The notes: generated by a model from the letters alone, not told the origin. DNA of 64,000 bases from Alphaproteobacteria bacterium (GCA_016869765.1 VGES01000002.1:59964-123963), one strand, 5' to 3'; numbered from the stretch's first letter, positions 9,055 to 26,979 are shown. Numbers and translations: made by a program.

Positions 9055-9077
9055 GGCGCCGCTGACGCGGCGGCGCC
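9055..9077. terminator. GC-rich imperfect hairpin at convergent GST/SDR junction (possible bidirectional terminator, no U-tract)
   Basis: GGCGCCGC-tgac-GCGG(CGG)CGCC between stop codons 9038 (+) and 9077 (-). Confidence 0.25.
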
Positions 9078-9868
9078 TAGGCCAGGTCCTTGGTCCAGCC
9101 GCCGTCGACCGTGATGGAGCGCCCGGTCATGTAGCTCGCGGCATCCGAACACATGAACACGATGGGTCGCGCCATCTCGATCGCTTCGGCGACGCGACCC
9201 ATCGGAATTTGATCCATGAAGCGGCGCTCCATCTCCTTGGCGCTGTATTTCGTATCTCGCGCCAGGCCTTGCATCAAACGGTCCCAGTGTTCGGTTCGCG
9301 TCGGGCCGGGCTGAAGCGCGTTGATGACGATGCCAAAGCGCATCACCTCTTCGGACAGCCCCTTGGTGAACGACAGGAGCGCGGCATTCGTCGCGGAGCC
9401 CGGGAGCAGGCGCGGATGAGGCTGTCGCCCAGTGTTGCCCGTGACATTGACGATACGACCGTAGCGTTGGCGACGCATCGCCGGCAGCACTGCGCGGACC
9501 ATGCGCACGGCGCCGAGGAATTTGAGCTGGATGGCGCTCTCCCAAGTGGCCTCACCGATCTCCCAAAAAACACCGCCCTGCGAAGAGCCGGCGGAATTGA
9601 TCAGGATATCGATACGACCGAATTGCTCGAGAGTCCGGGCGGCGACCTCCTCCGCCGGGCCGGGCTTCGACATATCGGCGGCAACGCAGGCAACGTCGGT
9701 GCCATAGGCCCGCGACAGCCGCGCGGCGAGTTTCTCGAGCGCCTTGAGCCGCCGCGACACCAGGACGACCTTGGTCCCTTCCTCGGCGAGCAGTTCGGCG
9801 CATGCTGCGCCGATCCCTTTGCTCGCGCCCGTCACGATCGCGATCTTTCCGCGCAACCCGAGATCCAT
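9077..9868 (-). CDS. SDR family oxidoreductase
   Basis: GKIAIVTGASKGIG Rossmann motif; NSAG; YxxxK (YSAKE). Confidence 0.85.
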   Translation of the reverse strand: MDLGLRGKIAIVTGASKGIGAACAELLAEEGTKVVLVSRRLKALEKLAARLSRAYGTDVACVAADMSKPGPAEEVAARTLEQFGRIDILINSAGSSQGGVFWEIGEATWESAIQLKFLGAVRMVRAVLPAMRRQRYGRIVNVTGNTGRQPHPRLLPGSATNAALLSFTKGLSEEVMRFGIVINALQPGPTRTEHWDRLMQGLARDTKYSAKEMERRFMDQIPMGRVAEAIEMARPIVFMCSDAASYMTGRSITVDGGWTKDLA

Positions 9869-9926
9869 GGAAATCACCCTACAACTTGCACGATCGGCGG
9901 GCTTTGCCGATGATGCCGCACACCTT

Positions 9927-10751
9927 ATGACGATATCCGTTCATCGACTACACGAGTCGCTCGGCGCCGAGATTCGCGGCATCGACCTTTCGCGCCCGCT
10001 CGACGATACGTCTTTCGCGACGATCGCGACGGCATTCCTCGATCACCAGGTGATCGTGCTCCGCGGCCAACAGCTTCCGCCGGAACGGCACATCGCGTTG
10101 ACGCGACGCTTCGGCAATCCCGAGATTCACATCCTCGAGCAGTTTCACCTCGTGGGGCATCACGAAATCCTCGTGCTGTCGAATCGCAAACATGCCGACG
10201 GCACCCCTGTCGGTCTCGAAGATGCCGGTCGGTATTGGCACACCGATGTCTCGTTCTGGCCCGAACCTTCCACGGCCTCACTGCTCTATTCGCTTGAGGT
10301 GCCACCCGAAGGCGGCGACACGATGTTCACCAACCAGTACGCCGCTTACGACGCGCTACCGGACGAACTGCGGCGCCAGCTCGATGGACGTCGCCTGTTG
10401 CACGGTCTCAACCGGGTCGTCGCCCCGAAGTTCACCGACGAACAACTCGCTCGCGTCGTCCCGGTTTCCCATCCGGCATTCCGCACGCACCCGGGCACGG
10501 GGCGCAAGGCCGTGTTCGCCGGAGCCTTCGCCATGGGAATCGAGGGCATGACCGACGCCGCGGCACGTCCGATCCTCGATGCCCTCTACGCCCATTGCGG
10601 GGAGGATCGCTTTCGCTACGTGCACCGTTGGCGAGCCGGCGACCTCGTGATGTGGGACAACCGCTGCGTCCTGCACCACGCCACCCCGTTCGATCCTGCA
10701 TATGCACGGCACATGCACCGAACGACCGTATCCGGCGGTCGACCGATCTGA
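9927..10751 (+). CDS. TauD/TfdA family Fe(II)/2-oxoglutarate-dependent dioxygenase
   Basis: MTISVHRLHESLGAEIRGIDL...HTDVSFWPEPSTASLLYSLEVPPEGGDTMFTN...HHATPFD; HxD...H facial triad context. ATG 9927 is in frame with track ORF 9744. Confidence 0.85.
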   Translation: MTISVHRLHESLGAEIRGIDLSRPLDDTSFATIATAFLDHQVIVLRGQQLPPERHIALTRRFGNPEIHILEQFHLVGHHEILVLSNRKHADGTPVGLEDAGRYWHTDVSFWPEPSTASLLYSLEVPPEGGDTMFTNQYAAYDALPDELRRQLDGRRLLHGLNRVVAPKFTDEQLARVVPVSHPAFRTHPGTGRKAVFAGAFAMGIEGMTDAAARPILDALYAHCGEDRFRYVHRWRAGDLVMWDNRCVLHHATPFDPAYARHMHRTTVSGGRPI

Positions 10752-10783
10752 CGGTCCCGACCGATTCTCCCGAGGAGGCCCCC

Positions 10784-11620
10784 TTGACGACCGTCACGCT
10801 TCGCGATGGTTCCGTGGTCTGGTACCGGCGTCTCGGTCAGGGGCCGGCGATCCTGCAGATCCACGGCTCGGCTTTCGGCCACCGCAACTTCGAGAAGCTC
10901 ACCCCCGAGATGCAGCATGGCTGCGAGGTCATCGACTTCGACCTACCGGGGTTCGGCGACAGCCGACCGGGGAAAACCCCGTTTCGCAGCATGGAGGATC
11001 TCGCTGCCCTCGTGGCCGAGGTGATCCGAGCCCTCGGGCTCGAACGTGTCCATGTCCACGGGACGTCCTATGGCGCAATGATCGGCCTGGCGCTCGCCGC
11101 CCGTCACCCGGAGGTTGTCGATCATCTCGTGCTGAGTTGCTTCATCGCGCGCTGGGACCGGGCCGCTGCGATGATGCGGGCGACCTGGAAGCGGGCCGCA
11201 AAGGATAGCGGCATGTCGGCCGTCGCCGATCTCACCGCTGTGGTGGGCTTCGCGCGCAGTTACTTCGAGCGACCCGAGGCTCAGGCGCAACTCGAGTCGA
11301 TGCGCGAGGCCTTCAGCCGAACTGCGCCCGCGGCGTTCATCGCGAGCGTCGAGGCGGCCGAGCGGGCCGACCTCACGCCGTTTGCGCGCCAGATCCAGGC
11401 GCCGACGCTCATTCTGGCGGGAGAAAACGACGCCATGACTCCGCTACACGCGGCGGCCAGCGGTGTCGGACTCGCCGAAGCCGCCAAGTTGATCCCGGGT
11501 TGCAAAGAGGTCCACGTCGTCAAAGACAGCGGCCACTACCTCGTAATCGAGCAGCCCGCGGCCGTCGCGAGAAAGATCCGGGCGTTTCTCGGAGTCGCCG
11601 ATCCGGGGAATCGGGCCTGA
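10784..11620 (+). CDS. Alpha/beta hydrolase fold protein
   Basis: HGSAFGHRNF...VHGTSYGAMIGLALAARHPEVVDHLVL (GxSxG nucleophile elbow)...DSGHY. A TTG start at 10784 is preceded by a GAGGAGG ribosome-binding site. An ATG further upstream would overlap the TauD gene. Confidence 0.75.
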   Translation: MTTVTLRDGSVVWYRRLGQGPAILQIHGSAFGHRNFEKLTPEMQHGCEVIDFDLPGFGDSRPGKTPFRSMEDLAALVAEVIRALGLERVHVHGTSYGAMIGLALAARHPEVVDHLVLSCFIARWDRAAAMMRATWKRAAKDSGMSAVADLTAVVGFARSYFERPEAQAQLESMREAFSRTAPAAFIASVEAAERADLTPFARQIQAPTLILAGENDAMTPLHAAASGVGLAEAAKLIPGCKEVHVVKDSGHYLVIEQPAAVARKIRAFLGVADPGNRA

Positions 11621-11651: not shown

Positions 11652-11736
11652 GAGGAGCTGGCGAAACGGTAGACGCAGCGCATTGCCAGTGCGTGGGGGC
11701 ACCTGTCCCGTAAGGGTTCGAATCCCTTGCTCCTCA
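11652..11736 (+). tRNA. tRNA-like gene with type II (long variable arm) Leu/Tyr-like scaffold but anticodon GCC (Gly); possible noncanonical or pseudo tRNA
   Basis: Manual cloverleaf fold. Acceptor GAGGAGC/GCTCCTC with discriminator A73. 3-bp D stem GCG/CGC with loop AAACGGTAGA (Leu-like). Anticodon stem GCGCA/TGCGT with loop TTGCCAG. 17-nt variable arm. T arm AAGGG-TTCGAAT-CCCTT. No encoded CCA. Not run through tRNAscan. Confidence 0.35.
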
Positions 11737-11873
11737 CACCTCCACGTTCTAGCCTTCGTCGAGGTTCCTCCGAGGGGCGCGACTGGCCGTATCGGGACGA
11801 TTGCCCGCCGCCGCGCCCACTGGCACCACCGATCCCAAGAGCGCCGGCCAAGGCCGAGGAATCGCCCGCGCTC

Positions 11874-13274
11874 CTATTTTGCGACCAGCTTGGCCGCGTT
11901 CTCTCCCGCCAAACGCCCGAGATTGGTCGCCATGAACAAGCCTGACCCCGACAGATAGCCCCAATCGGACGGCCCGGAGAGACCACGAGCAGCACCGCCT
12001 CCGGCGAACAAATTTGGGAACGGCTTGCCGTCCATCTTGAGAACCCGGGCTTCGGTGTTCACTTCGAGGCCGCCCTGCGTGTGAAACAGCGCCCCCATGA
12101 TCTTGGCCATGTAGTAGGGCGCCTTGAGCGCGGGTTTGGTCGAGAAGTCACGGCCGAAGGAGTCCTTTTTCTTCTTATTGGCGACGTCGGCCACGTCGCC
12201 GAGGGTGGCGCCGAGCGTCGCGGCGTCGCAGCCGATCACCCTGGCCATTTCGGCCACCGAATCGTAGCGCTTGATTGCTCCGGCTTTGAGCGCCTCCTGG
12301 TGGCTGTGCATCTGGATCGCAACGTCCTGGCAACGCGCGTCCCAGATCGTCCACGCCACATGTTCGGGCTGACGCACGACATTGAGCGCCTGTTCCGAAT
12401 ATCCGGCGTTTTCGTTCGAGAAGCGCTTGCCGTATTTGTTGACCTGAAATCCGCCTTCGGTGATCGACGGCCAGCCCAGATGAATCGCATGCGGCGTGCA
12501 AACCGCGCCGTGACCCTGGAACGATCCCATGTCCTTGATCGAGGCGCCGAGGTCCTCGCCCCATTTCACGGCGTCGCCTTGGTTGCCGACATGACCGTGG
12601 TAATGCGCGTTGACGATCTCTGGAATGTACTTGGCGAGCATCGCCTTGTTACCGCCGTAGCCGTTGCAGGCGAGCACCAAGGCCTTGCAGCCGATGTCTT
12701 CCGCCTTGCCGTCGGGACGCGTGACCCGCACGCCATGAATGCGCTTGGCCGAATCAGCATAGAGATCGGTGACGTACGCCGACGTGGCGATGGGGATCCC
12801 TTCCTTCTCGACCGCCGCCACGAACACCGTGAGAAGTTCCGCACCGAAGCGCGATGGCGAGGCGTGCATGTGCGGCTTGGAATGGCCGGGATAACGAAAA
12901 TCCAGAATGCACGACAACGGCAGCTGGTAGCGATCGACGAGCCAGTCCACGGTCTTTGCCGATTCCTTGGCGAGAAATCGTGCGAGATCCTGGTCGCATT
13001 CTCCGTGCGCCTTGTTGATGAGGTCCTTGGCCAAGATCTCCGGCGTGTCGTCGAGCAGCCCCGCGGCACGCTGCAGCTTGGTTCCGGCGGCGGGAATCTG
13101 GCCGCCCGACAGCGAGGTGTTGCCACGCGGCTTGGCGTCACGTTCCAGGATCAGCACGTCCGCGCCCGCTTCATTGGCGGCGAGCGCCGCCGTGCAGCCG
13201 CAGGCTCCGGCTCCGATGATCAGCAGGTCGGCGCTGGTGTCGAACGATTTTCCCTCGGCCTTCAGAATCGGCAT
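11874..13274 (-). CDS. FAD-binding flavoprotein of the fumarate reductase/succinate dehydrogenase flavoprotein-like family (TcuA-like/3-ketosteroid dehydrogenase-like)
   Basis: DLLIIGAGACGCTAALAANEAGADVLILER (FAD Rossmann)...C-terminal GLFAGGGAARGLSG... Size ~467 aa. Track start 13289 is the alternative. Confidence 0.75.
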   Translation of the reverse strand: MPILKAEGKSFDTSADLLIIGAGACGCTAALAANEAGADVLILERDAKPRGNTSLSGGQIPAAGTKLQRAAGLLDDTPEILAKDLINKAHGECDQDLARFLAKESAKTVDWLVDRYQLPLSCILDFRYPGHSKPHMHASPSRFGAELLTVFVAAVEKEGIPIATSAYVTDLYADSAKRIHGVRVTRPDGKAEDIGCKALVLACNGYGGNKAMLAKYIPEIVNAHYHGHVGNQGDAVKWGEDLGASIKDMGSFQGHGAVCTPHAIHLGWPSITEGGFQVNKYGKRFSNENAGYSEQALNVVRQPEHVAWTIWDARCQDVAIQMHSHQEALKAGAIKRYDSVAEMARVIGCDAATLGATLGDVADVANKKKKDSFGRDFSTKPALKAPYYMAKIMGALFHTQGGLEVNTEARVLKMDGKPFPNLFAGGGAARGLSGPSDWGYLSGSGLFMATNLGRLAGENAAKLVAK

Positions 13275-13416
13275 GGTGTCCCTCCCCATCGGTTTGCACG
13301 AGCTTGCGAGCCTTTGCCGGCCTGATCAAGGGTCCGGACAACGTGCGGAATCGGTTTGACTCGCTTCCTGCTCCTCGCTTATCCGTCAGAGAACCAGAAG
13401 GCGAGGGGGAACTCCG

Positions 13417-14259
13417 ATGGCCAAGGCCAAAAGCAACACACGTCGCAAGAAGAAAGTCCTGGTGCTCGTCCCATTCCCCATGTCGGGCGAACATCTCGAG
13501 GCGCGACGCGAGCAGAGCGTCAAACTCGATCTCGGGCCGGATATCGAATTCCACTACCGGCCGACGAAATGGGCCGGAACCAACTTCGTCGGCCCCTACG
13601 ATTACGCGCTCGGCGACTTCACCATGCTCGAAGCCGGCCTGTCGGCGCAGGACGACGGCTATGACGCGGTTTGCATCGACACCATGAGCGACTCGGGCGT
13701 CGCAGCCCTGCGCGCGGCGCTCGACATTCCGGTGATCGGGCCGGGTCGCACGACGATCCTCACCGCCATGATGCTCGGCGACAAGTTCGGCATGCTCGTG
13801 ATGTGGGAGCGCTGGCTCGGGCTCTACAAAAAGGTGATGGATGAGCTCGGCGTCTGGCACAAGTATGCCGGCTACCAGTCGATCGGCGTCGCTCCCGACC
13901 GGTTCTCGCTCCTCGGCGGCGAGGAGAAGGTGATCTTCCCTAAGCTGCTGGCGGCGGGAAAGAAACTGATCGAAGAGAACGGCGCCGACGTCATCATCCT
14001 GGGCTCGACTTCGATGCATCAGGCCCACGGATTCCTGTCCGAGAATTTGCCAGTCCCGGTGATCAGTCCCGGCCCCTTGTCCTACGGCATCGCCCAGATG
14101 TTGCTCAACGTGGGCCTCAAGCACAGCCGCAAGTCCTACCCGCAGCCGGTCGCGCGCAGCGATCATTACATCCACACCATGCTCGAGGCCGCGGCCGCCG
14201 AGGCCAAGAAGGGTCCGAAACTGGTCGGCGCCGAAGGCCTCAAGAAGAAAAAGAAATAG
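13417..14259 (+). CDS. Asp/Glu/hydantoin racemase family protein (HyuE-like), paralog 1, with Lys-rich N- and C-terminal tails
   Basis: VLVLVPFPMSGEH...YDAVCIDTMSDSGVAALRAALDIPVIGPGRTT...IILGSTSMHQ. Termini MAKAKSNTRRKKK... and ...EGLKKKKK. Confidence 0.75.
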   Translation: MAKAKSNTRRKKKVLVLVPFPMSGEHLEARREQSVKLDLGPDIEFHYRPTKWAGTNFVGPYDYALGDFTMLEAGLSAQDDGYDAVCIDTMSDSGVAALRAALDIPVIGPGRTTILTAMMLGDKFGMLVMWERWLGLYKKVMDELGVWHKYAGYQSIGVAPDRFSLLGGEEKVIFPKLLAAGKKLIEENGADVIILGSTSMHQAHGFLSENLPVPVISPGPLSYGIAQMLLNVGLKHSRKSYPQPVARSDHYIHTMLEAAAAEAKKGPKLVGAEGLKKKKK

Positions 14260-14282
14260 TCGTCACCCCTGGGGAGGTTCCG

Positions 14283-15098
14283 ATGGCCAAAGTCCTCGTA
14301 CTCGTACCCTTCGCGATGGATCGCAAAGGGGTCGCCAACCGGCGGGCTCAGCTCAAGGGAGTCAAACTCGGGCCCAAGATCGAATTCGACTTCCGTCCGG
14401 TGACCGCCGGGCCGCAAATGTACATGAGCGCCCACGACTTCGCGTTCATGGACATAGCGATCTTCGAAGCGGGCATGGACGCCGAGAAAGAAGGCTATGA
14501 CGCCGTGTGCATCGACACCATGAGCGACTCGGGCATGGATGCGTTGCGTTCGGTCCTCGATATCCCGGTGATCTCACCGGGCAAGGCCTCGATGCTGTTC
14601 GCACTCACGCTCGGCAACAAGTTCGGCCTGATGGCGGCGTGGGAGCCGGCGGCGATCCGGACGCGCAAATTCGTCAAGAGCCTCGGGCTCGATCCGTTTT
14701 GTGCCTCCGTCGAGGTCTATGACGTGCCGCCCGACTACATCAATTTGATGGCCGGCAAGGAAGACAAGACGTTGCCCAAGATGCTCGCGGCGTGCAAACG
14801 GGCCGTCGACAAGGGGGCCGATGTGATGATCCTGGGCTCGACGACGATGCATCAGGCGCACGCCTACCTTTCGGAGAAGCTGCCGATCCCGGTCGTCAAC
14901 CCGGGCCCGCTCACGTACAAGCTCGTCGAGACCGTGCTCGCGATGAAGCTGTCGCACTCGCGCCAGCCCTACCCCAAGCCGATCGTCGGCCATCAGGACG
15001 TGATCCACGCCATGTTCCACAAGGCGGGCGAACTGATGAACTCGCCCACGCTCAAGCTCAAGGAAGAGCTGGCGAAGAAGAAAAAGAAGCGGCGCTAG
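14283..15098 (+). CDS. Asp/Glu/hydantoin racemase family protein (HyuE-like), paralog 2, Lys-rich C-terminal tail
   Basis: Collinear paralog of the previous gene (YDAVCIDTMSDSGMDALRSVLDIPVISPGKAS...MILGSTTMHQ). Ends ...ELAKKKKKRR. Confidence 0.75.
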   Translation: MAKVLVLVPFAMDRKGVANRRAQLKGVKLGPKIEFDFRPVTAGPQMYMSAHDFAFMDIAIFEAGMDAEKEGYDAVCIDTMSDSGMDALRSVLDIPVISPGKASMLFALTLGNKFGLMAAWEPAAIRTRKFVKSLGLDPFCASVEVYDVPPDYINLMAGKEDKTLPKMLAACKRAVDKGADVMILGSTTMHQAHAYLSEKLPIPVVNPGPLTYKLVETVLAMKLSHSRQPYPKPIVGHQDVIHAMFHKAGELMNSPTLKLKEELAKKKKKRR

Positions 15099-15112
15099 CC
15101 CCTCGCCCTACC

Positions 15113-15164
15113 CTCTCCCCGCGCCAAGCGCGGGGAGAGCGGGGACCCGACGCGAAGCGTCGGG
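15113..15164. terminator. Two tandem GC-rich hairpins at a convergent gene junction (putative bidirectional terminator, no U-tract)
   Basis: Perfect 12-bp stem CTCTCCCCGCGC-caa-GCGCGGGGAGAG (15113-15139), followed by an 8-bp stem CCCGACGC-gaa-GCGTCGGG. Lies between the stop of racemase-2 (+) and the stop of the methyltransferase (-). Confidence 0.35.
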
Positions 15165-15180
15165 GGGTGAGGGCTGTTGG

Positions 15181-16359
15181 CTATTTGATCCCCTGAATGA
15201 CGAAGAAGTACTCGTCGCGGCCACGATTCCCCTGCGGGTGGCAATCGGCGCCCTTGGGCTTAAGGCCCAGCGACGTACGGTCCCGCGCCGGATCATCGGC
15301 TCGCCGCATATAGCCCGACGCGGTCGAGGAGAAGCCGATGGCCTTGGCCATGGCGGCCGTGTCAATCGAATTGATCTGCGCCCAGAACGGCTCGGCATTG
15401 TTGTAGGTCTGCCAATCGTGGATCACCTGTTCATAGAGATCCATGTCGCGATAGGGCAGGCCCAGTTCGAGATGCAGCATCATCCCACCCGGCCTGAGCA
15501 GGCGCAGGCATTCGCGCAGAATGTTGGGAACGGCCTTCGACGAGGTTTCGTGGAACAGGAGGTGCGAAACGATCAGGTCAAAGGAGCCCGATGCGAAGTT
15601 GGTCTTCTCGGCGTTCTGTTGCGAGAAATGGATGCGTCGGCCGACCGATTCGGCCCGCGCGTGGGCGTAGCGGAGAAGCGGCGCCGCGACGTCGATCGCG
15701 AACACCTCGGCCTTGGGAAAGTACTTGGGGTAGGGCAACGTGCCCTGTCCGATCGAACACCCGAGGTCGAGAATGCGTTTTGGCGCAAAGCTCGCATAGT
15801 TGGTGCGCAAGTATGAGACGACGGTCCGCCCGCGGGCATCATGCAATGGACCCTGGGTGCCGCAAACGTTGATAAACGTCCCGCGATCGAACAACGCACC
15901 GGTGCGCATGTCATTGCCCGTGACTTCCGCCGTGTAGCCGCCCGGCATGGCGTGGATATCGACCGCCGACATGTAGCGCGGCGGGGACAGCGTCGGGTCG
16001 AGCGTGAGTGTCCCACCAACGCCTTTCACCGTCCGCGAGCGTGCATCGAGCGCCGGCAACTGCCGCGAGACACTTTCTTCGACCGAGTCCCACATCACTT
16101 CCTGGGCGAGGCGCGTGAGCGAGCCCCACATCTGGTGATAGCCGTTTCGCTCCATCGCGGAACGCAGCTCGTGACGCGTCTTGGGTGCGCGCCCATTGGT
16201 GCGTCGGAACGCCGGCAACACTTCGTTTTCGGCGACGTTGCGATTGCCAGGCGTGATATCGCTGGAGATGTGCGACTTGAACGCAAATGTGAACTCCTGG
16301 CGTGCCTGTTCGTCGTGGTTAGCCCGCGGCAAGACGGCATGGACCTGTTGGTTGATCAT
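15181..16359 (-). CDS. Class I SAM-dependent methyltransferase
   Basis: ILDLGCSIGQGT (motif I) and LLRPGGMM (post I/II). ATG 16359 is preceded by GAGGGAG. Track start 16431 is the alternative. Confidence 0.75.
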   Translation of the reverse strand: MINQQVHAVLPRANHDEQARQEFTFAFKSHISSDITPGNRNVAENEVLPAFRRTNGRAPKTRHELRSAMERNGYHQMWGSLTRLAQEVMWDSVEESVSRQLPALDARSRTVKGVGGTLTLDPTLSPPRYMSAVDIHAMPGGYTAEVTGNDMRTGALFDRGTFINVCGTQGPLHDARGRTVVSYLRTNYASFAPKRILDLGCSIGQGTLPYPKYFPKAEVFAIDVAAPLLRYAHARAESVGRRIHFSQQNAEKTNFASGSFDLIVSHLLFHETSSKAVPNILRECLRLLRPGGMMLHLELGLPYRDMDLYEQVIHDWQTYNNAEPFWAQINSIDTAAMAKAIGFSSTASGYMRRADDPARDRTSLGLKPKGADCHPQGNRGRDEYFFVIQGIK

Positions 16360-16523
16360 TGGTGGACTCCCTCGCTTCTGGCCCAAAGGATAGCGCCTGG
16401 CTTCGAATACGCCAATTCGTTGCATTGGCATCGCTGGCGGAGGATCGCTAGTATCGACGGCGATTGGCGGTCAGTGCGCCCGCCGGGAAGCCCGGCGCAC
16501 AACCAGGGGAGGTGATCGGTCTC

Positions 16524-17567
16524 ATGAACAGTAAGATTTCGCGCCGTTCGGCGCTCAAGACGACCGGTGCCGTGTTGGCGGGGGCCGCCAGCGGGGCAAT
16601 GGGATTTCCGGCGTTGGTCCGCTCGCAGCAGCAAAAGCGGCTGCTGAAGCCCGTCGTGGCCGGCCTAAACGGCAAAGAAGGTGACCCGACCTACATGTCG
16701 ATCTCGCTCGTGCCGAAAATTTTGCGCGAGAAGTACGACGTGCAGGTCGACTTCCAGATCCACCCGTCATCGTCGCTCGGCACCGATCTGTCGCAGCTCG
16801 ATGCGGTGCAGACCGGTTTCATCGACATCACATCGAATGTGACGGCGCAGTTCTCGCAGTACGACAGATCGTTCGACGTGCTCGATCTGCCCTACATCGT
16901 CAGCGACTGGGACATGGCGGCGCGAGTCGTCAAGTCCGAGTTGTGGCAGAAGCAATCCAAGGCCTTCGAGTCGAAGGTTCCGGTCAAGGTGTTGCCACCC
17001 GTCGGCGCCGGCGGCTTCCGGTTGTTGTCCAACAACGTCCGCGCGTTGCCGACGCCGGACGCGGTGCAAGGCCTCAAGTTCCGCTCCGTGACCTCGCCGC
17101 TCGACATCGAATTGATCAAGGCGTGGGGTGGCAACCCGACGCCGATGGCGTGGGCGGAGACCTACACCGCCCTGCAGCAGAAGGTCGTCCAGGGTTATCA
17201 CGTGCAACCGATCTGGACCTTCAACTTCAAAGGCTACGAGGTGCTCAAGTACGCGACGGAAGTGAAGGCGATCTTCGCCATTCAGTTCCAGGTCATGAAC
17301 ATGAACACTTGGAAGTCGCTGCCCGAGGCGATCCAGAAGCCGATGATGATGGCCTTCGAGGAGGCGGCGGCTATCGGCAATGCCGAGGACCGCAAGGCCG
17401 AGGACACCTTCAAGGAAGAGCTCAAGAAGAAGGGCATGGAGATCTACACGCCCTCCGCCGCCGAACTCGCGAAGTGGCGCGAGAAGGGCGAGTCGATTTG
17501 GGCCACCGCGGGCAAGGATGTGCCGCGCGGCTTGATCGACGAAGTGCGGGCATTGCGCACGGCCTAG
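16524..17567 (+). CDS. TRAP transporter solute-binding protein DctP family (paralog 1), Tat/Sec signal
   Basis: MNSKISRRSALKTTGAVLAGAASGAMGFPALVRSQQ signal region. The DctP fold is conserved alongside the other two paralogs (LSQLDAVQTGFIDITSN, VKVLPPVGAGGFR). Confidence 0.9.
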   Translation: MNSKISRRSALKTTGAVLAGAASGAMGFPALVRSQQQKRLLKPVVAGLNGKEGDPTYMSISLVPKILREKYDVQVDFQIHPSSSLGTDLSQLDAVQTGFIDITSNVTAQFSQYDRSFDVLDLPYIVSDWDMAARVVKSELWQKQSKAFESKVPVKVLPPVGAGGFRLLSNNVRALPTPDAVQGLKFRSVTSPLDIELIKAWGGNPTPMAWAETYTALQQKVVQGYHVQPIWTFNFKGYEVLKYATEVKAIFAIQFQVMNMNTWKSLPEAIQKPMMMAFEEAAAIGNAEDRKAEDTFKEELKKKGMEIYTPSAAELAKWREKGESIWATAGKDVPRGLIDEVRALRTA

Positions 17568-17590
17568 TTCGCGTCGAATTGGTATGGAAA

Positions 17591-17618
17591 GCGGCGGCCC
17601 TCGGCCGCCGCTTTTTTT
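17591..17618 (+). terminator. Rho-independent terminator after dctP paralog 1
   Basis: GCGGCGGCC-ctc-GGCCGCCGC stem followed by TTTTTTT. Confidence 0.6.
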
Positions 17619-17756
17619 GATTCCCGCCCACGCCTCGTTCACTCAACAAAAACTTGATGGACGGCCTAGCGAAGGGCGGTTAGCGTCCATGGCAAGGTCG
17701 GCCCTGGGTTCCGACCCGCGCGTGTTTTCATCGCAACACTTTGGGAGGAGATATCC

Positions 17757-18803
17757 GTGAGCAACAACAAATTCAGTCGGCGTTCGCTGCTCAAGGGCAG
17801 CGCGACCGTGGCCACGGGCGCCGCCATCGGTGGGCTCGGGTTCCCGGCGCTGGTGCGCTCGCAGCAGCAGAAGAGAATGTTGAAGCCGATCGTGGCCGGC
17901 CTCAACGGTCGGGAAGGCGATCCGACCGACATGTCGATCCGCCTGATCCCGAAGATTTTGAAGGAAAAGTACGACGTCGAGGTGAACATGCAGATTCACC
18001 CAGCCTCGGCGCTCGGCACCGATCTGTCGCAGCTCGATGCGGTGCAGACTGGCTTCATCGACATCACTTCGAATACGACGACCCAGTTCGTGCAGTATTC
18101 GCCGGACTTCGCCTACGTCGATCTCCCCTACGTCATCGCCGACTGGGACATGGCGTTGCGCTACTTCAAGTCCGACCAATGGAACAAGACGGCAGCCAAC
18201 TTCGAGAAGAAGGTTCCGGTCAAGGTGTTGCCGCCGGTCGGCGCGGGTGGCTATCGCATGCTGTGGAACAACGTGCGGGCGTTGCCCGAGCCCGGCGTGG
18301 TCAACGGTCTCAAGATTCGGTCGTCGACAGCCCAACTCGAAATCGATTTGATCAAAGCCTGGGGTGGCAACGCAACGCCGATGGCCTGGACCGAAACCTA
18401 CACTGGCCTGCAGACCAAGGTCGTCCAGGGCTTCCACGTTCAACCGATCTGGACCTTCCAGTTCAAGATGTACGAGCAGCTCAAGTTCGCGACCAAGGTC
18501 CAGGCACTCTACGCCATCCAGTTCCAGGTCATGAACGCGGCTACGTTCAAGGCGATGCCGGAATCGATCCAGAAGCCGTTCCTGCTCGCGGCGCAGGAGG
18601 CTGCCGATATCGCCAACCAGAAGGATCGCGAACTCGAGGCGCACTTCGAGGGCGAACTCAAGAAGGTCGGCATGGAGATCTACACGCCGTCTTCGGCCGA
18701 GATGCAGAAATGGCGTTCCGCCGGCGAAAAGCTCTGGGACGGCGCCAAGGGCATCAACAAGGGTGACGTCGACGCGATGGTCGCGTTGCGCCGCTCGACC
18801 TGA
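17757..18803 (+). CDS. TRAP transporter solute-binding protein DctP family (paralog 2)
   Basis: GTG start preceded by GGAGGAG. MSNNKFSRRSLLKGSATVATGAAIGGLGFPALVRSQQQKRMLKP; ~70% identical to paralog 1. Confidence 0.9.
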   Translation: MSNNKFSRRSLLKGSATVATGAAIGGLGFPALVRSQQQKRMLKPIVAGLNGREGDPTDMSIRLIPKILKEKYDVEVNMQIHPASALGTDLSQLDAVQTGFIDITSNTTTQFVQYSPDFAYVDLPYVIADWDMALRYFKSDQWNKTAANFEKKVPVKVLPPVGAGGYRMLWNNVRALPEPGVVNGLKIRSSTAQLEIDLIKAWGGNATPMAWTETYTGLQTKVVQGFHVQPIWTFQFKMYEQLKFATKVQALYAIQFQVMNAATFKAMPESIQKPFLLAAQEAADIANQKDRELEAHFEGELKKVGMEIYTPSSAEMQKWRSAGEKLWDGAKGINKGDVDAMVALRRST

Positions 18804-18825
18804 CGTCGCTGTCGGTTCGAGGATT

Positions 18826-18858
18826 GGGCCCTGGTGCGAGCCGGGGCCCTTTCTTTTT
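18826..18858 (+). terminator. Putative intrinsic terminator/attenuator after dctP paralog 2
   Basis: GGGCCC-N12-GGGCCC self-complementary stem followed by TTTCTTTTT. Confidence 0.5.
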
Positions 18859-18987
18859 CACGTTGTCTGGGCTGCTGAAGGCCCCTACCATCCGCCGCGA
18901 CCCGCCGGGTGAGCCCGAGGCCCGGCGACAACAACAAAACGTCGGTCGAGGGGGTCGGGCATCGCGCGGCGGTTCCCGCTGCGCCGT

Positions 18988-19521
18988 TTGGGTTCGATGA
19001 GTCACCTCAGCCGCATCATCGACGGAATCGACACGATTGCTCGCGTGTTCGTGACCGTGGCCGTCTCGGTCATCACGATCGTGATGCTGGCCCAAGTGTT
19101 CTTCCGCTATGTGATCAACGACTCGTTGCAGTGGTCTGAGGAATTCTCGATCTACACCATGGTGTGGACGGTGTTCATTGGCGCTGTGATCTTGATCCGA
19201 AACTGGGAACACATCGCGATCCCGTCGTTCTTGAACCTTTTGCCGTTCCCGGCGCGCGGCTGGATGTTTGTCTTCGCCAAGGTGCTTTGCGTCGTCTTTT
19301 TCGTCATGGTGGCGTACTGGGGCTTCGAGTTCGTCGATCAACGCGTACACGCCCGCTCGCCTTCCATGGGTTTCTCGACGCGCTGGGTCAAGTTGTCGAT
19401 TCCGGTCGGCGCTACGTTGATGGTGCTGTTCACGATCAACGAGATCCTGCGCGACATCCTGGCGATCCGCTCCAAGGACACCGGCTACTTCGCCCGTCTG
19501 GGTGAAGGCGGCAGCCTCTAG
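18988..19521 (+). CDS. dctQ: TRAP transporter small permease DctQ
   Basis: ~175 aa with four transmembrane segments. ARVFVTVAVSVITIVMLAQVFFRYVINDSLQWSEEFSIYTMVWTVFIGAV. An alternative start lies at MSHLS (18997). Confidence 0.85.
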   Translation: MGSMSHLSRIIDGIDTIARVFVTVAVSVITIVMLAQVFFRYVINDSLQWSEEFSIYTMVWTVFIGAVILIRNWEHIAIPSFLNLLPFPARGWMFVFAKVLCVVFFVMVAYWGFEFVDQRVHARSPSMGFSTRWVKLSIPVGATLMVLFTINEILRDILAIRSKDTGYFARLGEGGSL

Positions 19522-20851
19522 CGCCATGGAGATCGTCGCCCTCTATCTGCTGCTGCCCCTGTTCGTGCTTCTGGTGTTGGGCGTGCCGATCGCGATCAGC
19601 CTCGGGCTCTCCTCGGCGTTCTTCCTCTACCTGATGAACATTCCCGAGCTCGAGCTCGCGGCCCGGCCGATCCCGATCATGACGCTGGTCACCGAGATGT
19701 TCACCGGGGTCAACCAGTTTGCGCTGCTCGCGCTGCCGATGTTCGTGCTGTCGGGCGAGTTGATGAACCGGTTCAACATCGTCGATCGCCTGATCGACCT
19801 CGCGCGCTACTCGATCGGGTGGGTGCGGGGCGGCATGGCGCACGTCACGATCGCGGCCAGCACCATGTTCGCGTTCATCTCGGGCTCGGCGCTGGCGACG
19901 GCCGCCTCGATCGGGCCGATCATGATCCCGGCAATGATCAAGGAAAAGTACCCGAACGCCTTCGCCGCGGCCCTCGTGGCGGCGGCCGCGATGTTGGGGC
20001 CGATCATTCCGCCCTCGACACCGATGATCATTGTCGGCAGCCAGCTTGGAATCTCGATCGGCGGCATGTTTGCGGGCGGTATCTTGCCGGGCCTGATGAT
20101 CAGCGCCGTCCTTATGATCATGTCCTATCTCATCGCCCGTCGCCGCAACATGGGGGAGGTCCACAAGTTCGAGGGCGTGCCGGCGATCACGCGCAGCATC
20201 TTCCGCGCGCTGCCGGCGATTTCGGTCCCTGCCCTGTTGTTGATCGGGATTATCGGCGGCGTGTTCACGCCGACCGAAGCCGGGGCGGTCACGGTCGCCT
20301 ACGCCCTCTTCCTGGGTACGTTCTATTTCCGCACGGCGGAACGCAGCAAAATCCTCGGAGCGCTGTGGTCCACCGCGAAGATCACGGCCTCGGTGTTGTT
20401 CATCGTCGCCTGCGCGCTCGTCTTCAACCGGATCATGACCTACTTCCAGGTCCCGCAGAACCTCGTGAAGCTCATGGTCAGCATCTCGAGTGATCCGGTC
20501 GTGCTGGTGATCATCATCATCGCGTTCCTGCTGTTCGTCGGCACGTTCATGGACGAGCTTTCGAACCTGATCATTCTCGGGCCCCTCTTGATGCCGGTGT
20601 GCACCCAGGTGGTCGGGATGCACCCAATCCAGTACGGGCTCTTCCTGATGGTGGGCATCCTGCTTGGCCTGCTGACCCCGCCACTGAGCCTGTTGCTCAA
20701 CGTCGCGGCGCCAATCGGCAGGGTTTCCGTAGGACGGGTGTCGGTCGTCGTACTGCCGTTCTTCTTCGCCCAAGTCTTGATCGTTGCGGCCATCGCCTTC
20801 ATCCCAGCCATCACCCTGGCCCTCCCGCGGCTGTTCGGGTTCGTTGACTAG
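19502..20851 (+). CDS. dctM: TRAP transporter large permease DctM
   Basis: ~440 aa polytopic DctM. Overlaps dctQ by 20 nt. An alternative start lies at MEIVALYLLL (19526). Confidence 0.9.
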   Translation: MKAAASSAMEIVALYLLLPLFVLLVLGVPIAISLGLSSAFFLYLMNIPELELAARPIPIMTLVTEMFTGVNQFALLALPMFVLSGELMNRFNIVDRLIDLARYSIGWVRGGMAHVTIAASTMFAFISGSALATAASIGPIMIPAMIKEKYPNAFAAALVAAAAMLGPIIPPSTPMIIVGSQLGISIGGMFAGGILPGLMISAVLMIMSYLIARRRNMGEVHKFEGVPAITRSIFRALPAISVPALLLIGIIGGVFTPTEAGAVTVAYALFLGTFYFRTAERSKILGALWSTAKITASVLFIVACALVFNRIMTYFQVPQNLVKLMVSISSDPVVLVIIIIAFLLFVGTFMDELSNLIILGPLLMPVCTQVVGMHPIQYGLFLMVGILLGLLTPPLSLLLNVAAPIGRVSVGRVSVVVLPFFFAQVLIVAAIAFIPAITLALPRLFGFVD

Positions 20852-20985
20852 CGGTCGCTTCACCGCCCCTTCAAGAATCCGCTGCCGGACCCCAGATTGC
20901 CGTTGTCAGCCGAGCGCATTTGTCCTTGAATCCGGGCCGTTTCGTGCCCGGGGGAGCGTGGCGCGAACGAGGTGAGGGACGGGCG

Positions 20986-22095
20986 ATGGCGGGGCGTCGG
21001 GCTACGCGCCGTGACGTGATCGGGGGGGCCGCAGCAGCAATCGCGGCGGGGATTGCGACTCTGTCCGCGGCGTCCGCGCAGCAGACCTCCCCCCCCAAGG
21101 CGCCAGCGACGACAACTCCGCCGCCGGCGCGCCGCGGCAAACCGCCCGGCAAACTCCTACGCACGTATCACCGCCCCATCGTCGTCGGGCTGAACGCCCA
21201 GCCGGGCGAACCCACCTACCAGTCGATCGCCGACATCCCGAAGATCCTCAAAGACAAGTACGACATCGTGATGGAATTCCAAATCCATCCCGGGTCGACG
21301 CTCGGCACCGATCTCTCCCAGCTCGAGGCCGTGCAGGCTGGCTATCTCGACATCACGAGCAACACGACGTCGCAGTTCTCGGTATTCGACGACTCGTTTG
21401 CCTTCGTCGATCTGCCGCATTTGATTTCGAGTTGGGACACGGCGCTGCGGTTGTTCCGTTCACCGCTGTGGCAGCAGCAGGCGGCGGCGTTCGAGAAGGT
21501 CGTGCCGGTCAAGGTGTTGCCGCCGGCCACCGCCGGTGGTTTCCGCCGCGTCGCCAACAGCAAACGCCGGGCCACTGTCCCCGCGGACCTCAAAGGCCTC
21601 AAGCTTCGTGCCACACGATCCCCGATCGAACAGGCGCTGATCCGCCAGTGGGGGGCCGAGCCTGTGGCCTTGCCATGGGTCGAAACGTACGCGAGCTTGG
21701 CGCAGGGTGCGATCGACGGCATCCACGTCCAGCCGATCTGGATGTCGCGCTTCAAGATGCACGAGCAGATCAAGTTCGTGACCGACGTCGTCTCGCTGTT
21801 CACCGTTCAGCTTCAGGTGATGAACACGAAGACCTGGGAAGAGATGCCCCCCGAGATCCAGGATCCGTTTCTGCGTGCCGCCCAGGAGGCGGCGGACCGC
21901 GCCAATACGCGCGACCGGGCGATGGAGACCGCCGCCCTCGACGAACTCAAGAAGGCCGGTGTCGAGGTCTATACCCCGACCGCCGACGAAGCGGCGCAAT
22001 GGCGCGCGGCCGGCGACAAAGTGCTCACCGCCCTCGGGGCGCAGATCGACAAGAAAATCGTCGACGGAGTGACCGCCCTCGCCCGCGGCGCGTAG
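20986..22095 (+). CDS. TRAP transporter solute-binding protein DctP family (paralog 3) with Pro/Thr-rich linker after signal peptide
   Basis: MAGRRATRRDVIGGAAAAIAAGIATLSAASAQQTSPPKAPATTTPPPARRGKPP followed by the DctP domain (LSQLEAVQAGYLDITSN, VKVLPPATAGGFR). GAGG ribosome-binding site before ATG 20986. Confidence 0.85.
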   Translation: MAGRRATRRDVIGGAAAAIAAGIATLSAASAQQTSPPKAPATTTPPPARRGKPPGKLLRTYHRPIVVGLNAQPGEPTYQSIADIPKILKDKYDIVMEFQIHPGSTLGTDLSQLEAVQAGYLDITSNTTSQFSVFDDSFAFVDLPHLISSWDTALRLFRSPLWQQQAAAFEKVVPVKVLPPATAGGFRRVANSKRRATVPADLKGLKLRATRSPIEQALIRQWGAEPVALPWVETYASLAQGAIDGIHVQPIWMSRFKMHEQIKFVTDVVSLFTVQLQVMNTKTWEEMPPEIQDPFLRAAQEAADRANTRDRAMETAALDELKKAGVEVYTPTADEAAQWRAAGDKVLTALGAQIDKKIVDGVTALARGA

Positions 22096-22123
22096 CCTGC
22101 ACAGCCTACCCCCGGAGTAACTG

Positions 22124-22906
22124 CTACTTCTTCGCCGACACCCCGCCGTCGACCAAAAGGCCGACGCCGGTGACGTAGCTCGCCTCGTCGCTCGCGAGAA
22201 ACAGAATCGGGCGCGCCACTTCCTCCGGCGCAGCGTAGCGCTTCAGCGGCACGTGGTCGACCCCCGCGCGCCCATCGCCGCCCACCAATTGACGCCCCGG
22301 AGGGCGCAGCATCGGTGTATCGATCGGTCCCGGAAGGACCGCGTTGCACCGGATGTTCCAACCCTGTTGCGCGCAATGCCGGGCGATCGTTTTGGTGTAC
22401 TGCAGGACCGCCGCCTTGCTGGCGCCGTAGACCGCCCGCACCGGCCAGCCCTTGTTGGCGGCGATCGAGGAGACGTTGACGATGGCCCCGCCCCCGGCCG
22501 CGCGCATGGCGGCAATCGCGAGCCGGCACCCCAGGACCAGGCCCTCGACGTTGACCCCCTGAATCCAGCGCCAGGTCTCGAGCGTTACGGCCTCGGGCTC
22601 CTGGGCCGGCGTGTGATCGGGCCGAACGCCGTTGATGCCGGCGATGTTGGCGAGCACGTCGAGGCGACCAAATCGATCCGTGGCCGCCGCGAGGACCGCA
22701 CGCCACTGTTCTTCCTCGCGCACGTCGTGCTGGACGAACACCGCGCGGTGCTCGATCTCGGCCTCCCAGACGGCCTGGTCGACCGCTGCGACGTCGCTGC
22801 CGATCACCTTGGCGCCCTCGGCGGCGAACAACCGCGCCGTCGCCCGTCCGATACCCGACGCTGCCCCGGTGACGATCGCCACTTTGTCTCGAAGACGTCC
22901 GGTCAT
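22124..22906 (-). CDS. SDR family oxidoreductase
   Basis: DKVAIVTGAASGIGRATA...NIAG...YGASKAAV. Confidence 0.85.
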   Translation of the reverse strand: MTGRLRDKVAIVTGAASGIGRATARLFAAEGAKVIGSDVAAVDQAVWEAEIEHRAVFVQHDVREEEQWRAVLAAATDRFGRLDVLANIAGINGVRPDHTPAQEPEAVTLETWRWIQGVNVEGLVLGCRLAIAAMRAAGGGAIVNVSSIAANKGWPVRAVYGASKAAVLQYTKTIARHCAQQGWNIRCNAVLPGPIDTPMLRPPGRQLVGGDGRAGVDHVPLKRYAAPEEVARPILFLASDEASYVTGVGLLVDGGVSAKK

Positions 22907-23655
22907 GTCGCCGACAAACCGCCATCGACGAACAGCTCGGCCCCCGTGACATAGCTCGCATCGTCGCTGGCCAGGAACACGATGGCCGCGGCGACCTCCT
23001 CGGGCTCACCGTACCGCTGCATCGGGACGTGGGGCGCCTCGATCCCGCCCGCCCGGCCGCCGGTGAGCGGCCGGAAGGTCGCGGTCTTGATCCCCCCCGG
23101 ATGCACGCTATTGCACCGGATCGTCGCAACGCCCTCGGCGCTGTGGAGCGCCAGCGACTTGGTGTAGGACCAGATCGCAGCCTTGCTCGCCCCATACGCC
23201 GCATTCGCCGGAACACCGATGATCGCCGCGACCGAGGACAGGTTCACGATCGCCGCGTGCGATGAGCGGCGGAGCGTTGGCAATGCGATCTGGCAACCGA
23301 GCACGGTTCCCTCGACGTTGACCTCCTGCATGAGCCGCCAATGTTCGAGCGTTACGTGTTCGGGGTCATGACGCCCCGAGGGGGCCGCCCCGGGATTGAG
23401 GCCGGCACTGTTCACCAGGATATCGAGCCCACCGAAACGCTCGACGGCGGTGGCCACCGCCGTGTGCCATTGATCGGCGCGCCGAACATCGTGCACGAGG
23501 TCCACAAATCGGTCGTCGCTCGTTCGCCAGGCGATCGGTACGGCGTCTGTCGCCACGACACGTGCACCCTCGTGGAGGAACGCCCGCACCGTCGCCGCGC
23601 CGATCCCCGACGCCGCCCCAGTGACAAGGGCCACCCGATCCAGAAGCCGCGACAT
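22903..23655 (-). CDS. SDR family oxidoreductase
   Basis: DRVALVTGAASGIGAATV...NSAG...YGASKAAI. Overlaps the downstream SDR by 4 bp. Confidence 0.85.
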   Translation of the reverse strand: MSRLLDRVALVTGAASGIGAATVRAFLHEGARVVATDAVPIAWRTSDDRFVDLVHDVRRADQWHTAVATAVERFGGLDILVNSAGLNPGAAPSGRHDPEHVTLEHWRLMQEVNVEGTVLGCQIALPTLRRSSHAAIVNLSSVAAIIGVPANAAYGASKAAIWSYTKSLALHSAEGVATIRCNSVHPGGIKTATFRPLTGGRAGGIEAPHVPMQRYGEPEEVAAAIVFLASDDASYVTGAELFVDGGLSAT

Positions 23656-25303
<1,648 letters not shown>

Positions 25304-25659
25304 GATCCCCACCCCCGGACGGCCCCAAATCGGGCCGCTACTCCGACAATCTGATGAATTATGCCATGCGACCCCGCGTGTCCCAACTGGAACGCGATGT
25401 CCCAGCGACAGCAATTTCGATCAAGCATCGCCAGCGCGCTTCTGCACAACGGCTCCCACGCAGGAGACCTCGTGAGTTGCGTCCAGCGCGCGATCTGTCA
25501 ATGCGCCGGACTTCGAACGCTATGGCGAGACTTTCGACCCTGGAACGGGAGAAGGTGGCGTCGCGATTTGGATTCCGATCCATCGTTGATGCGTCAGGCG
25601 GGTTCTCAGCACGGGGCGGAGCGATCATAATCGGCGCCCTCGACCACGGGAGAACAACC

Positions 25660-26892: not shown

Positions 26893-26979
26893 TGGTGCGG
26901 GTGGAGGGAATCGAACCCCCACTCCCCGAAGGGAACGAGATTTTGAGTCTCGCGCGTCTACCAGTTCCGCCACACCCGC
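26893..26979 (-). tRNA. tRNA-Leu (anticodon CAA), CCA encoded
   Basis: Reverse complement reads GCGGGTG-TG-GCGGAACTGGTAGACGC-G-CGAGA-CTCAAAA-TCTCG-(14-nt variable arm)-GGGGGTTCGATTCCCTC-CACCCGC-A-CCA. Canonical type II Leu cloverleaf. Confidence 0.85.

Follow-up and report, generated by a model that had tools for sequence, protein, structure and literature searches.

A transporter locus of the TRAP (tripartite ATP-independent periplasmic) type, in which a single pair of membrane genes, dctQ and dctM, is accompanied by three genes for DctP-type solute-binding proteins (P1, P2 and P3), was analysed in a 64,000-nucleotide stretch of DNA from an uncultured freshwater alphaproteobacterium (GCA_016869765.1, VGES01000002.1:59964-123963; GC ~65%). 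The whole of this stretch is called the window below; the locus and its flanking enzyme genes had been delimited at positions 11,874–23,655. The local ratio of binding proteins to membrane units is 3:1, and by the sequence criteria tested the locus falls within the DctP-type TRAP family (TC 2.A.56). In the reading to which we give a slightly better than even chance, the locus mediates DctPQM-type uptake of one or more organic acids, with one DctQM served by three paralogous binding proteins of one DctP subfamily.

Each binding protein would then take a slightly different member of one acid family (in substituent, stereochemistry or affinity range), and P1, P2 and P3 would each hand the acid to the same DctQM. 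Terminators behind the first two binding-protein genes would keep binding protein in excess over permease, and the imported compound would be processed by the flavoprotein, the racemase-fold proteins rac1 and rac2, the methyltransferase (MT) and the paired short-chain dehydrogenases (SDR1 and SDR2) encoded alongside. The 3:1 layout would go back to old duplications, after which membrane units were reshuffled and lost, and not to recent tandem duplication.

Arrangement of the TRAP genes

Genes were placed by frame-bias calling, Pfam and NCBIfam scans, and the gene calls on an identical metagenome contig (coordinates in Table 1). P1, P2 and P3 all scored above the NCBIfam TRAP_S1 (NF037995) cut-off, and the genes for DctQ and DctM, placed between P2 and P3, share their strand. 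Using P, Q and M sequences as tblastn queries against the whole 64 kb window, no TRAP gene beyond P1, P2, P3, DctQ and DctM was found. Zero DctQ or DctM calls were obtained in ~30 kb to the left of the window (two stretches of the matching 96 kb metagenome contig), the remaining genome not being searched; the span around the locus that is free of a further QM pair measures ~47 kb on the left and 42 kb on the right. The order P2-Q-M-P3-SDR1-SDR2 was recovered in 8 independently assembled contigs (ENA, JGI and Logan samples), with 1–4 mismatches per ~6–7 kb between the 8 metagenome copies. Because 8 independent assemblies agree, the 3:1 arrangement is not an assembly artefact. The proteins of the window are deposited at NCBI as MBM3502497-504. 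Judged from coordinates, the right end of the window lies ~9 kb beyond the 96 kb ENA contig k141_664468, which places it on a longer assembly of this population.

The original prediction, made from the sequence alone, had described three full-length DctP proteins around a single dctQ-dctM pair, and its coordinates and gene list were reproduced by the Pfam/NCBIfam and tblastn searches. No additional dctQM turned up in the window or in the ~30 kb to its left, nor any pseudogene sign in P1–P3, the two observations that it had set against itself.

Binding proteins and predicted ligand pocket

Twin-arginine-like motifs, each followed by a hydrophobic stretch, were seen by eye in P1–P3 (SRRSALK in P1, SRRSLLK and TRRDVIG), and P2 additionally gave a sub-threshold match to Pfam TAT_signal; by this motif reading, all three binding proteins would carry export signals. 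The open reading frames (ORFs) of P1–P3 are intact and have a high third-position GC. In the AlphaFold model of P3, a signal helix is followed by a disordered Pro/Thr-rich stretch (residues ~23–58) and by the DctP fold (residues 59–369) at pLDDT >90, with a TM score of up to 0.94 against solved TRAP binding proteins; the Pro/Thr-rich linker noticed earlier in P3 is thus predicted to be disordered.

For mapping of the pocket, P1 was aligned pairwise to SiaP and IseP with HMMER, the ligand contacts of the isethionate-binding IseP and its relatives, including the roles of the anchor residues, being taken from PMC11668362; positions are given in P1 numbering. In this alignment SiaP R127, R147, N187, D49, N10 and F170 correspond to P1 R166, R187, Q228, D88, N49 and W210. 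These six positions and several others are invariant in P1–P3 and nearly so across the 38 tabulated members of the subfamily. The Arg that forms the salt bridge to the acid (SiaP R147, IseP R177) is R187, supported by R166, and both are invariant in P1–P3. The Asn anchor position is occupied by Gln228 throughout the subfamily.

Over 36 pocket-region columns, picked by sequence homology to SiaP and IseP and not from coordinates, P1 and P2 agree at 29 (7 differ) against an overall identity of 67%, and P1 and P3 at 25 (11 differ) against 46–50% overall; these columns are thus better conserved than the whole proteins. The variation is concentrated at positions 50, 106, 165, 189-190, 250 and 252, and tracks paralogue type across genomes. 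Position 106 aligns with SiaP E67 and IseP S95, and 189-190 adjoin the anchor Arg (IseP D180); overall, the type-specific signature positions align with the ligand contacts SiaP E67 and IseP S95, Y155 and D180. Because the predicted pockets are very alike, closely related ligands are to be expected here, not distinct chemistries, and the comparison is suggestive of P1–P3 ligands that share one scaffold with small differences. A transfer of the ligand from the closest solved structure, 4n8g, was rejected, as ~30% identity is too low and nothing usable was found on the ligand of 4n8g.

Age and selection of the paralogues

P1 and P2 share 67% identity, and P3 shares 46–53% with either of them. 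Scanning of genomes yielded 42 loci that belong to this DctP subfamily; these and the other loci compared carry numbers with the prefix L in the following. In a neighbour-joining tree (100 bootstraps), in which the deep order of the paralogue types was poorly supported (22–48%), P1 clustered with the binding proteins of three betaproteobacterial loci with a single P gene (L002-L004, from metagenome-assembled genomes, MAGs) in 98/100 replicates, at 74–75% identity. P2 is nearest by identity (69–70%) to a 'C-type' P encoded between rac2 and MT in L005, L006 and L012, its position in the tree being with the P1 clade in 35/100 replicates. P3 forms a deep branch, at most 54% identical to all sequences in the tree set; a closer relative (61% identical), located in L044, was obtained from a protein-database search. 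The divergent identities and the placement with separate lineages indicate that the duplications behind P1–P3 are old. The phylogeny proposed with the original prediction, to tell recent duplicates from distinct forms, therefore points to old, distinct types.

Among L005, L006, L009, L012 and L022, dN/dS values of 0.009–0.071, indicating strong purifying selection, were obtained for the three paralogue types, at dS values of 0.8–1.9 that are near saturation. P1 and P2 gave dN/dS of ~0.2 against their nearest orthologues, again with synonymous sites near saturation. The eight metagenome copies were too clonal (1–4 mismatches) for a population dN/dS. By these sequence measures, none of P1–P3 looks like a pseudogene.

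Loci in related genomes

Relatives were compared by tblastn and ORF clustering over the related loci. Six alphaproteobacterial MAG loci (L005, L006, L009, L010, L012 and L022) carry 2–3 P genes with one QM pair, in the conserved order TauD-(DUF3095)-flavoprotein-rac1-rac2-(P)-MT-P-(ChrR-type cupin)-(P)-Q-M-SDR1-SDR2-Amt, and the core flavoprotein-rac1-rac2-P-Q-M is present in L016 and L018. Extra TRAP binding proteins had been called uncommon; within this subfamily they recur, as the 2–3 copies in these six loci demonstrate. DctM is 93–100% identical among L006, L022, L009, L010 and L012, yet the P types seen beside this orthologous DctM in the fetched loci differ: L006 and L022 have {C,A}, L009 and L010 have {A,B}, and L012 has {C,A,B}. 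Such differing sets beside orthologous permeases are the best indirect sign that the binding proteins may be interchangeable partners.

The DctM of the window is 67–69% identical to the M of the betaproteobacterial L002/L003 and ~54% identical to that of the alphaproteobacterial MAGs; for DctQ the corresponding values are 60% (L002) and 46–50%. By these identities, the QM pair of the window belongs to another type than that of the alphaproteobacterial MAGs. The closest relative for the enzymes is L044 (GCA_009694165.1, SHVP01000009.1; flavoprotein 86%, rac1 86%, rac2 89%), which shares the amidase-NIPSNAP-GST-SDR0-TauD flank and has a GNAT gene where the window has a hydrolase. Directly after its rac2 lies an intact P3-like gene (L044 10001-11149, 61%), and its cluster contains no methyltransferase, P1, P2 or dctQM, the place of the membrane genes being taken by a 280 aa protein and a TPR protein. 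In L045 (GCA_038148335.1, JAYQVF010000011.1), a frameshifted C-terminal fragment of a window-type DctM (positions 4-655, 58–71% identity, truncated where the contig ends) is located upstream of cupin-P-Q-M, a complete set whose QM belongs to the other type. L007 and L011 encode a binding protein of the subfamily and no QM within 10 kb. Taken at the level of gene content, the locus is evolutionarily fluid, with 1–3 binding proteins and 0–2 membrane units.

More distant members of the P subfamily adjoin PrpD/MmgE-HyuB-HyuA-PrpD modules, amidases, CoA-transferases and HMG-CoA-lyase-like genes. Two further genes were noticed in the relatives that the window does not have: a DUF3095 protein gene adjoining the flavoprotein gene in L006 (1599-2735) and also in L009, L010, L012 and L022, and a gene for a ChrR-type cupin/DUF4437 protein (L006 11146-12000; also L009, L010, L012 and L022), located between P genes or directly upstream of dctQ.

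Terminators and expression signals

The hairpin 3' of P1 (17586-17616) is a perfect 14 bp stem of −25.2 kcal/mol (z −4.7), followed by U7; that 3' of P2 (18826-18849) has a GC-rich stem of 10 bp and −25.8 kcal/mol (z −4.2), followed by UUUCUUUUU. Folding of the dctM-P3 gap (134 bp) and of the P3-SDR1 gap (28 bp) revealed no comparable hairpin. Folding energies and z scores thus uphold the earlier description of strong intrinsic terminators after P1 and P2 and of none after dctM. As read from the sequence, ribosome-binding sites are of the GGAGG type at P1, P2 and P3 and weak at dctQ. A strong terminator is also present 3' of the corresponding first P gene in L012; between P and Q of the single-P locus L002, no strong terminator was found. 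The P1 and P2 terminators are consistent with separate, strongly expressed transcription units for these binding proteins, and the independently tuned high expression that had been suggested for P1 and P2 fits them.

In the intergenic regions no riboswitch or known small RNA was found, only sub-threshold matches on the terminators being returned. When a shared operator was sought in the divergent region between MT and P1 across the relatives, the common elements were limited to a −35-like TTGGCA and the ribosome-binding site. No transcription factor gene is present among the genes called inside the cluster.

Competing explanations

Several points weigh against one DctQM being served by all three binding proteins. 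The docking of P2 and P3 on this DctQM is putative, the evidence from gene content and relatives being indirect; pairings of TRAP binding proteins with permeases are described as 'usually unique' (PMC12599236); the search for further dctQM genes covered the window and ~30 kb on its left and not the remaining genome; and on the side of the ligand, the solved binding proteins closest to P1–P3 are only ~22–30% identical, and the pocket columns were chosen by homology as stated above. P3 in particular, at 46–53% identity to P1 and P2, is the most divergent copy, and its closest relative, in L044, stands in a cluster without dctQM. The fragment in L045, the remnant of a second, window-type DctM beside a complete cupin-P-Q-M set, suggests that two QM types once stood in one locus and that P3 could be the survivor of a lost second system. 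Together with the binding proteins of L007 and L011 that have no QM within 10 kb, these observations speak for P3, and possibly P2, being the orphan of a deleted second tandem TRAP system that uses a permease elsewhere or is idle, and does not use the local DctQM. We consider this unlikely: P3 is intact with a good ribosome-binding site, is encoded on the strand of dctM, 134 bp downstream and not separated from it by a terminator, keeps every anchor residue and is confidently predicted to fold as a DctP protein, while the persistence of an intact 61% orthologue in L044 argues for a retained function and the occurrence of orthologous QM units beside different P sets for interchangeable partners. 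It is likewise doubtful, to a similar degree, that P1–P3 bind the same ligand and that the copies serve dosage, affinity ranges or different conditions and not a wider substrate range. Binding proteins are typically in excess over permeases, and the invariant anchors, the difference of P1 and P2 at just 7 of the 36 columns and the terminators, with their implied high and separately set expression, would all suit such an arrangement. Plain dosage copies, however, would be expected to be recent and homogenised, and the copies seen here are 46–67% identical, form separate lineages across genomes with their own signatures at aligned contact positions, and each type is under strong purifying selection.

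A sensory role, in which the extra binding protein or proteins would signal to a regulator or chemoreceptor from the periplasm instead of taking part in transport, would offer an answer to the unexplained regulation of a cluster that has no transcription factor gene, and binding proteins of other families are known to activate sensor kinases and chemoreceptors (PMC8050422, PMC5812351). However, neither in the window nor in the related loci does the conserved neighbourhood encode a sensor kinase, a chemoreceptor or any further partner for signalling, and the P genes stand interspersed with dctQM and the genes of catabolism, so that we regard this role as highly improbable. Of the two outcomes that the original prediction had offered, a broadened substrate range accordingly survives as the best reading, and signalling, with no sensor or chemoreceptor gene in the cluster, has no support. 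Uptake through one DctQM with three binding proteins for related acids is hence the reading we retain. Its most far-reaching form, to which we would attach only a small probability, is that one DctQM is truly shared by three binding proteins of differing preference and feeds an undescribed catabolic route composed of a racemase-fold heteromer in which Thr and Ser stand in place of the cysteines, a fumarate-reductase-like flavoprotein that lacks the arginines, and a methyltransferase directed at carboxyl groups together with a hydrolase. If that were true, the exchange of paralogues among orthologous permeases would mean that the pairing of TRAP binding proteins and permeases is modular and not strictly one-to-one.

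Flanking enzymes and a second cluster

The flanking genes suggest the catabolism of one or more organic acids. Their families had been named correctly in the original prediction; the labels HyuE-like and TcuA/fumarate-reductase-like do not hold beyond the level of fold or family, the Cys dyad and three of the four active-site residues being replaced. The cluster also proved larger than first described, since SDR0, a TauD/RdpA-like dioxygenase and a hydrolase (9077-11620) are also in the conserved neighbourhood.

Both rac1 and rac2 have the Asp/Glu racemase fold (PF01177) and belong to the hydantoin-racemase subgroup. The Cys dyad of these enzymes (C79 and C184 in KpAllR) is conserved across the superfamily and essential, a Cys-to-Ser exchange killing the activity of the relative OpaE (PMC12661438). 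Instead of it, rac1, rac2 and all 15 orthologues of the related loci have a Thr in the motif IDTMSDSG and a Ser in LGST[ST]M (Thr89 and Ser197 in rac1 numbering). The allantoin and hydantoin racemases HpxA/AllR and HyuE thus have a Cys-Cys dyad that rac1 and rac2 do not, and unlike their genes, the rac genes form conserved tandem pairs or triplets, with a methyltransferase paralogue adjoining in two of the three cases seen. An assignment of rac1 and rac2 as arylmalonate decarboxylases was rejected, as the second Cys needed there (Cys188) is Ser here. The rac subfamily is large (2311 homologues at E <= 1e-20, mostly metagenomic), its members being labelled 'allantoin racemase' or 'hydrogenase expression protein HupH' in the source records. 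Neither rac1 nor rac2 has a protein accession in the NCBI entry for this MAG, although the numbers of their neighbours run on consecutively.

The flavoprotein aligns over its full length with the flavin and capping domains of the Shewanella fumarate reductases and urocanate reductase (1qo8, 6t85; E ~1e-50). Among His365, Arg402, His504 and Arg545 (Fcc3 numbering), the active-site residues of fumarate reductase, only the equivalent of His365 is kept, with Arg402 replaced by Tyr, His504 by Phe and Arg545 by Ser. The protein scored 264 against the flavocytochrome c model TIGR01813 (cut-off 285.45) and 160.8 against the TcuA model NF006130 (cut-off 369). With 3/4 active-site residues replaced and both scores below cut-off, a canonical fumarate reductase or TcuA was dismissed. 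The likeness to Fcc3/Ifc3, UrdA and TcuA lies in the FAD_binding_2 flavin and capping domains and the His365 equivalent; as differences, the flavoprotein has neither a cytochrome nor an FMN domain, nor the Glu378/Arg381 proton path. For these large enzyme subfamilies, present labels such as 'allantoin racemase', 'HupH' and 'fumarate reductase-like' probably mislead.

For the dioxygenase, the closest structures are the ether-cleaving (R)-phenoxypropionate dioxygenase RdpA (6d1o, E 3e-50) and TauD (1gqw). The methyltransferase has a ~190 aa N-terminal region without assignment, and its BioC-like matches are far below cut-off. Its paralogues were met twice more. A second cluster of this organism, outside the window (L058; k141_664468, 65168-85956), codes for a decarboxylase of the UbiD type and a zinc-ribbon protein of 68 aa (VdcCD-like). 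Its three rac paralogues, arranged in tandem (L058 9230-11569), adjoin a full-length MT paralogue of 48% identity, and it further encodes a double alpha/beta hydrolase, a CoA ligase, two proteins of the isochorismatase family, an Amidohydro_2 protein and an oligopeptide-type ABC system; the third MT paralogue is encoded left of the window (L180 18149-19312). Because it is found again in L058, rac-rac-methyltransferase(-hydrolase) is regarded as a recurring module.

The rac1/rac2 (47%) and SDR1/SDR2 (52%) pairs would suit substrates that are related or stereoisomeric and are handled in parallel. As ideas only, we offer hydroxycinnamate-type aromatic acids, chiral 2-substituted propionates and di- or tricarboxylates masked as methyl esters, prompted by the RdpA-like dioxygenase, VprA-like matches of the flavoprotein, the pairing of methyltransferase and hydrolase, and the UbiD-linked second cluster, none of which discriminated between them.

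Table 1. Features called at the TRAP locus and its conserved neighbourhood (positions in the window)
Feature	Position	Strand	Basis and remarks
SDR0, short-chain dehydrogenase, left edge of conserved cluster	9077..9868	-	Pfam adh_short; syntenic in L009, L010, L016, L017, L044
TauD/TfdA-family Fe(II)/2-oxoglutarate dioxygenase	9927..10751	+	Pfam TauD; closest structures RdpA 6d1o and TauD 1gqw; syntenic in relatives
Alpha/beta-fold hydrolase	10784..11620	+	Pfam Abhydrolase_1; at this position specific to this genome
tRNA	11652-11737	+	ARAGORN, Rfam
FAD_binding_2 flavoprotein, without cytochrome domain, non-canonical active site	11874..13274	-	PF00890, E 1.4e-50
rac1, Asp/Glu/hydantoin-racemase fold without Cys-Cys dyad	13417..14259	+	Pfam Asp_Glu_race
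rac2, tandem rac1 paralogue, 47% identity, same Thr/Ser substitutions	14283..15098	+	Pfam Asp_Glu_race
MT, class I S-adenosylmethionine-dependent methyltransferase, divergent from P1	15181..16359	-	Methyltransf_25/11 at aa 220-318 of 416 aa ORF
P1, DctP-type binding protein, 347 aa	16524..17567	+	PF03480, E 3.5e-61
Intrinsic terminator, 3' of P1	17586..17622	+	14 bp stem, U7 tail
P2, DctP-type binding protein, 348 aa	17757..18803	+	PF03480, E 9.6e-52
Intrinsic terminator, 3' of P2	18826..18859	+	10 bp GC-rich stem, U-rich tail
DctQ, small membrane subunit	18997..19521	+	PF04290, E 5.6e-31
DctM, large membrane subunit	19526..20851	+	PF06808, E 2.3e-103; TIGR00786, 340.7 bits (cut-off 268)
P3, DctP-type binding protein, 369 aa, Pro/Thr-rich N-terminal linker	20986..22095	+	PF03480, E 3.2e-52
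SDR1, convergent with P3	22124..22906	-	adh_short_C2, E 1.8e-59; syntenic in relatives
SDR2, tandem SDR1 paralogue, 52% identity	22903..23655	-	Syntenic in relatives
glnK-amtB	23656-25210	-	Gene calls

Other features of the window

Downstream of the SDR pair (23656-26870), glnK-amtB is followed by a pair of RidA-family genes and by the gene of a conserved protein of 173 aa without a Pfam match; amtB, the RidA pair and this last gene occur in the same order in the alphaproteobacterial MAG relatives. This stretch may reflect plain chromosomal synteny or hint at a link to nitrogen.

The tRNA gene between the hydrolase and flavoprotein genes was called as tRNA-Gly(GCC) by ARAGORN. It is 86 nt long, with a long variable arm of 14 nt (class II), a tRNA-Leu-like D-arm and discriminator A, scores 50.3 bits with the Rfam tRNA model and agrees with the syntenic tRNA-Leu(CAA) (26893-26979) in 75% of the aligned columns; the relatives have no tRNA at this position. 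A pattern scan of metagenomes returned at least 120 stretches, and among the matches listed, 5 lay in 81–90 nt 'tRNA-Gly(GCC)' genes with Leu-like D-arms. It is odd that a Gly anticodon should sit on a Leu-like body, and judged from its sequence the gene could encode a tRNA that mis-decodes, or else be a pseudo-tRNA or the remnant of an integration.

At 57964-61413 (+), a ribonucleotide reductase of 1149 aa is encoded, the barrel domain of which is split by a LAGLIDADG_3 homing-endonuclease domain (aa 486-582); this protein probably contains an intein.

Comparison with known systems

TRAP transporters are a major route of organic-acid uptake in environmental bacteria, and a one-to-one pairing of binding protein and permease is generally assumed. 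TRAP operons with more than one binding-protein gene have been noted in genome surveys. A literature search, outside of which the main reviews and surveys lay, returned no explicit description or statistics of TRAP operons with several binding proteins. The 3:1 layout is thus under-studied and not unprecedented, and the locus is not a new kind of system; the basic picture of TRAP function is unchanged. Its value is that of a convenient natural system in which sharing of binding proteins by a TRAP permease can be tested, to which the relatives with near-identical permeases and different paralogue sets add a comparative angle.

The locus resembles the canonical DctPQM of Rhodobacter capsulatus and SiaPQM of Haemophilus influenzae in its three families, the separate Q and M genes, the P gene in first position and the Arg-Arg-Asn/Gln acid anchor. 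It differs from them in having three P genes per QM and not one, in the Gln of the third anchor, located in an HVQPIW motif in place of Asn, and in the putative twin-arginine-like signals. In Pseudomonas aeruginosa, a cross-interaction of DctP with IctQM has been suspected and was treated as a surprise (PMC12599236). As in that case, a TRAP membrane unit would here accept a second, similar binding protein; there, however, the second protein is non-cognate and comes from another complete system, whereas the additional proteins described here belong to a single locus that has no other QM in its vicinity.

Among ATP-binding cassette (ABC) importers, HisJ and ArgT with HisQMP exemplify several binding proteins served by one translocator. 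The likeness consists of paralogues of related specificity, one translocator and extra genes that can form separate transcription units; the ABC importers belong to another superfamily with another energy coupling, and the mode with several binding proteins is not experimentally established for TRAP transporters. The use of several binding proteins is well established for ABC importers (Thomas 2010, as cited in PMC12599236). For the tripartite tricarboxylate transporters (TTT), it has been proposed that the many 'orphan' TctC/Bug proteins share a membrane unit or act in signalling (PMC5812351). There, too, the binding proteins outnumber the membrane units, but the protein families are unrelated to those of the TRAP type, and the Bug genes are scattered in the genome, whereas the binding-protein genes described here are clustered with one permease and a set of putative catabolic genes.

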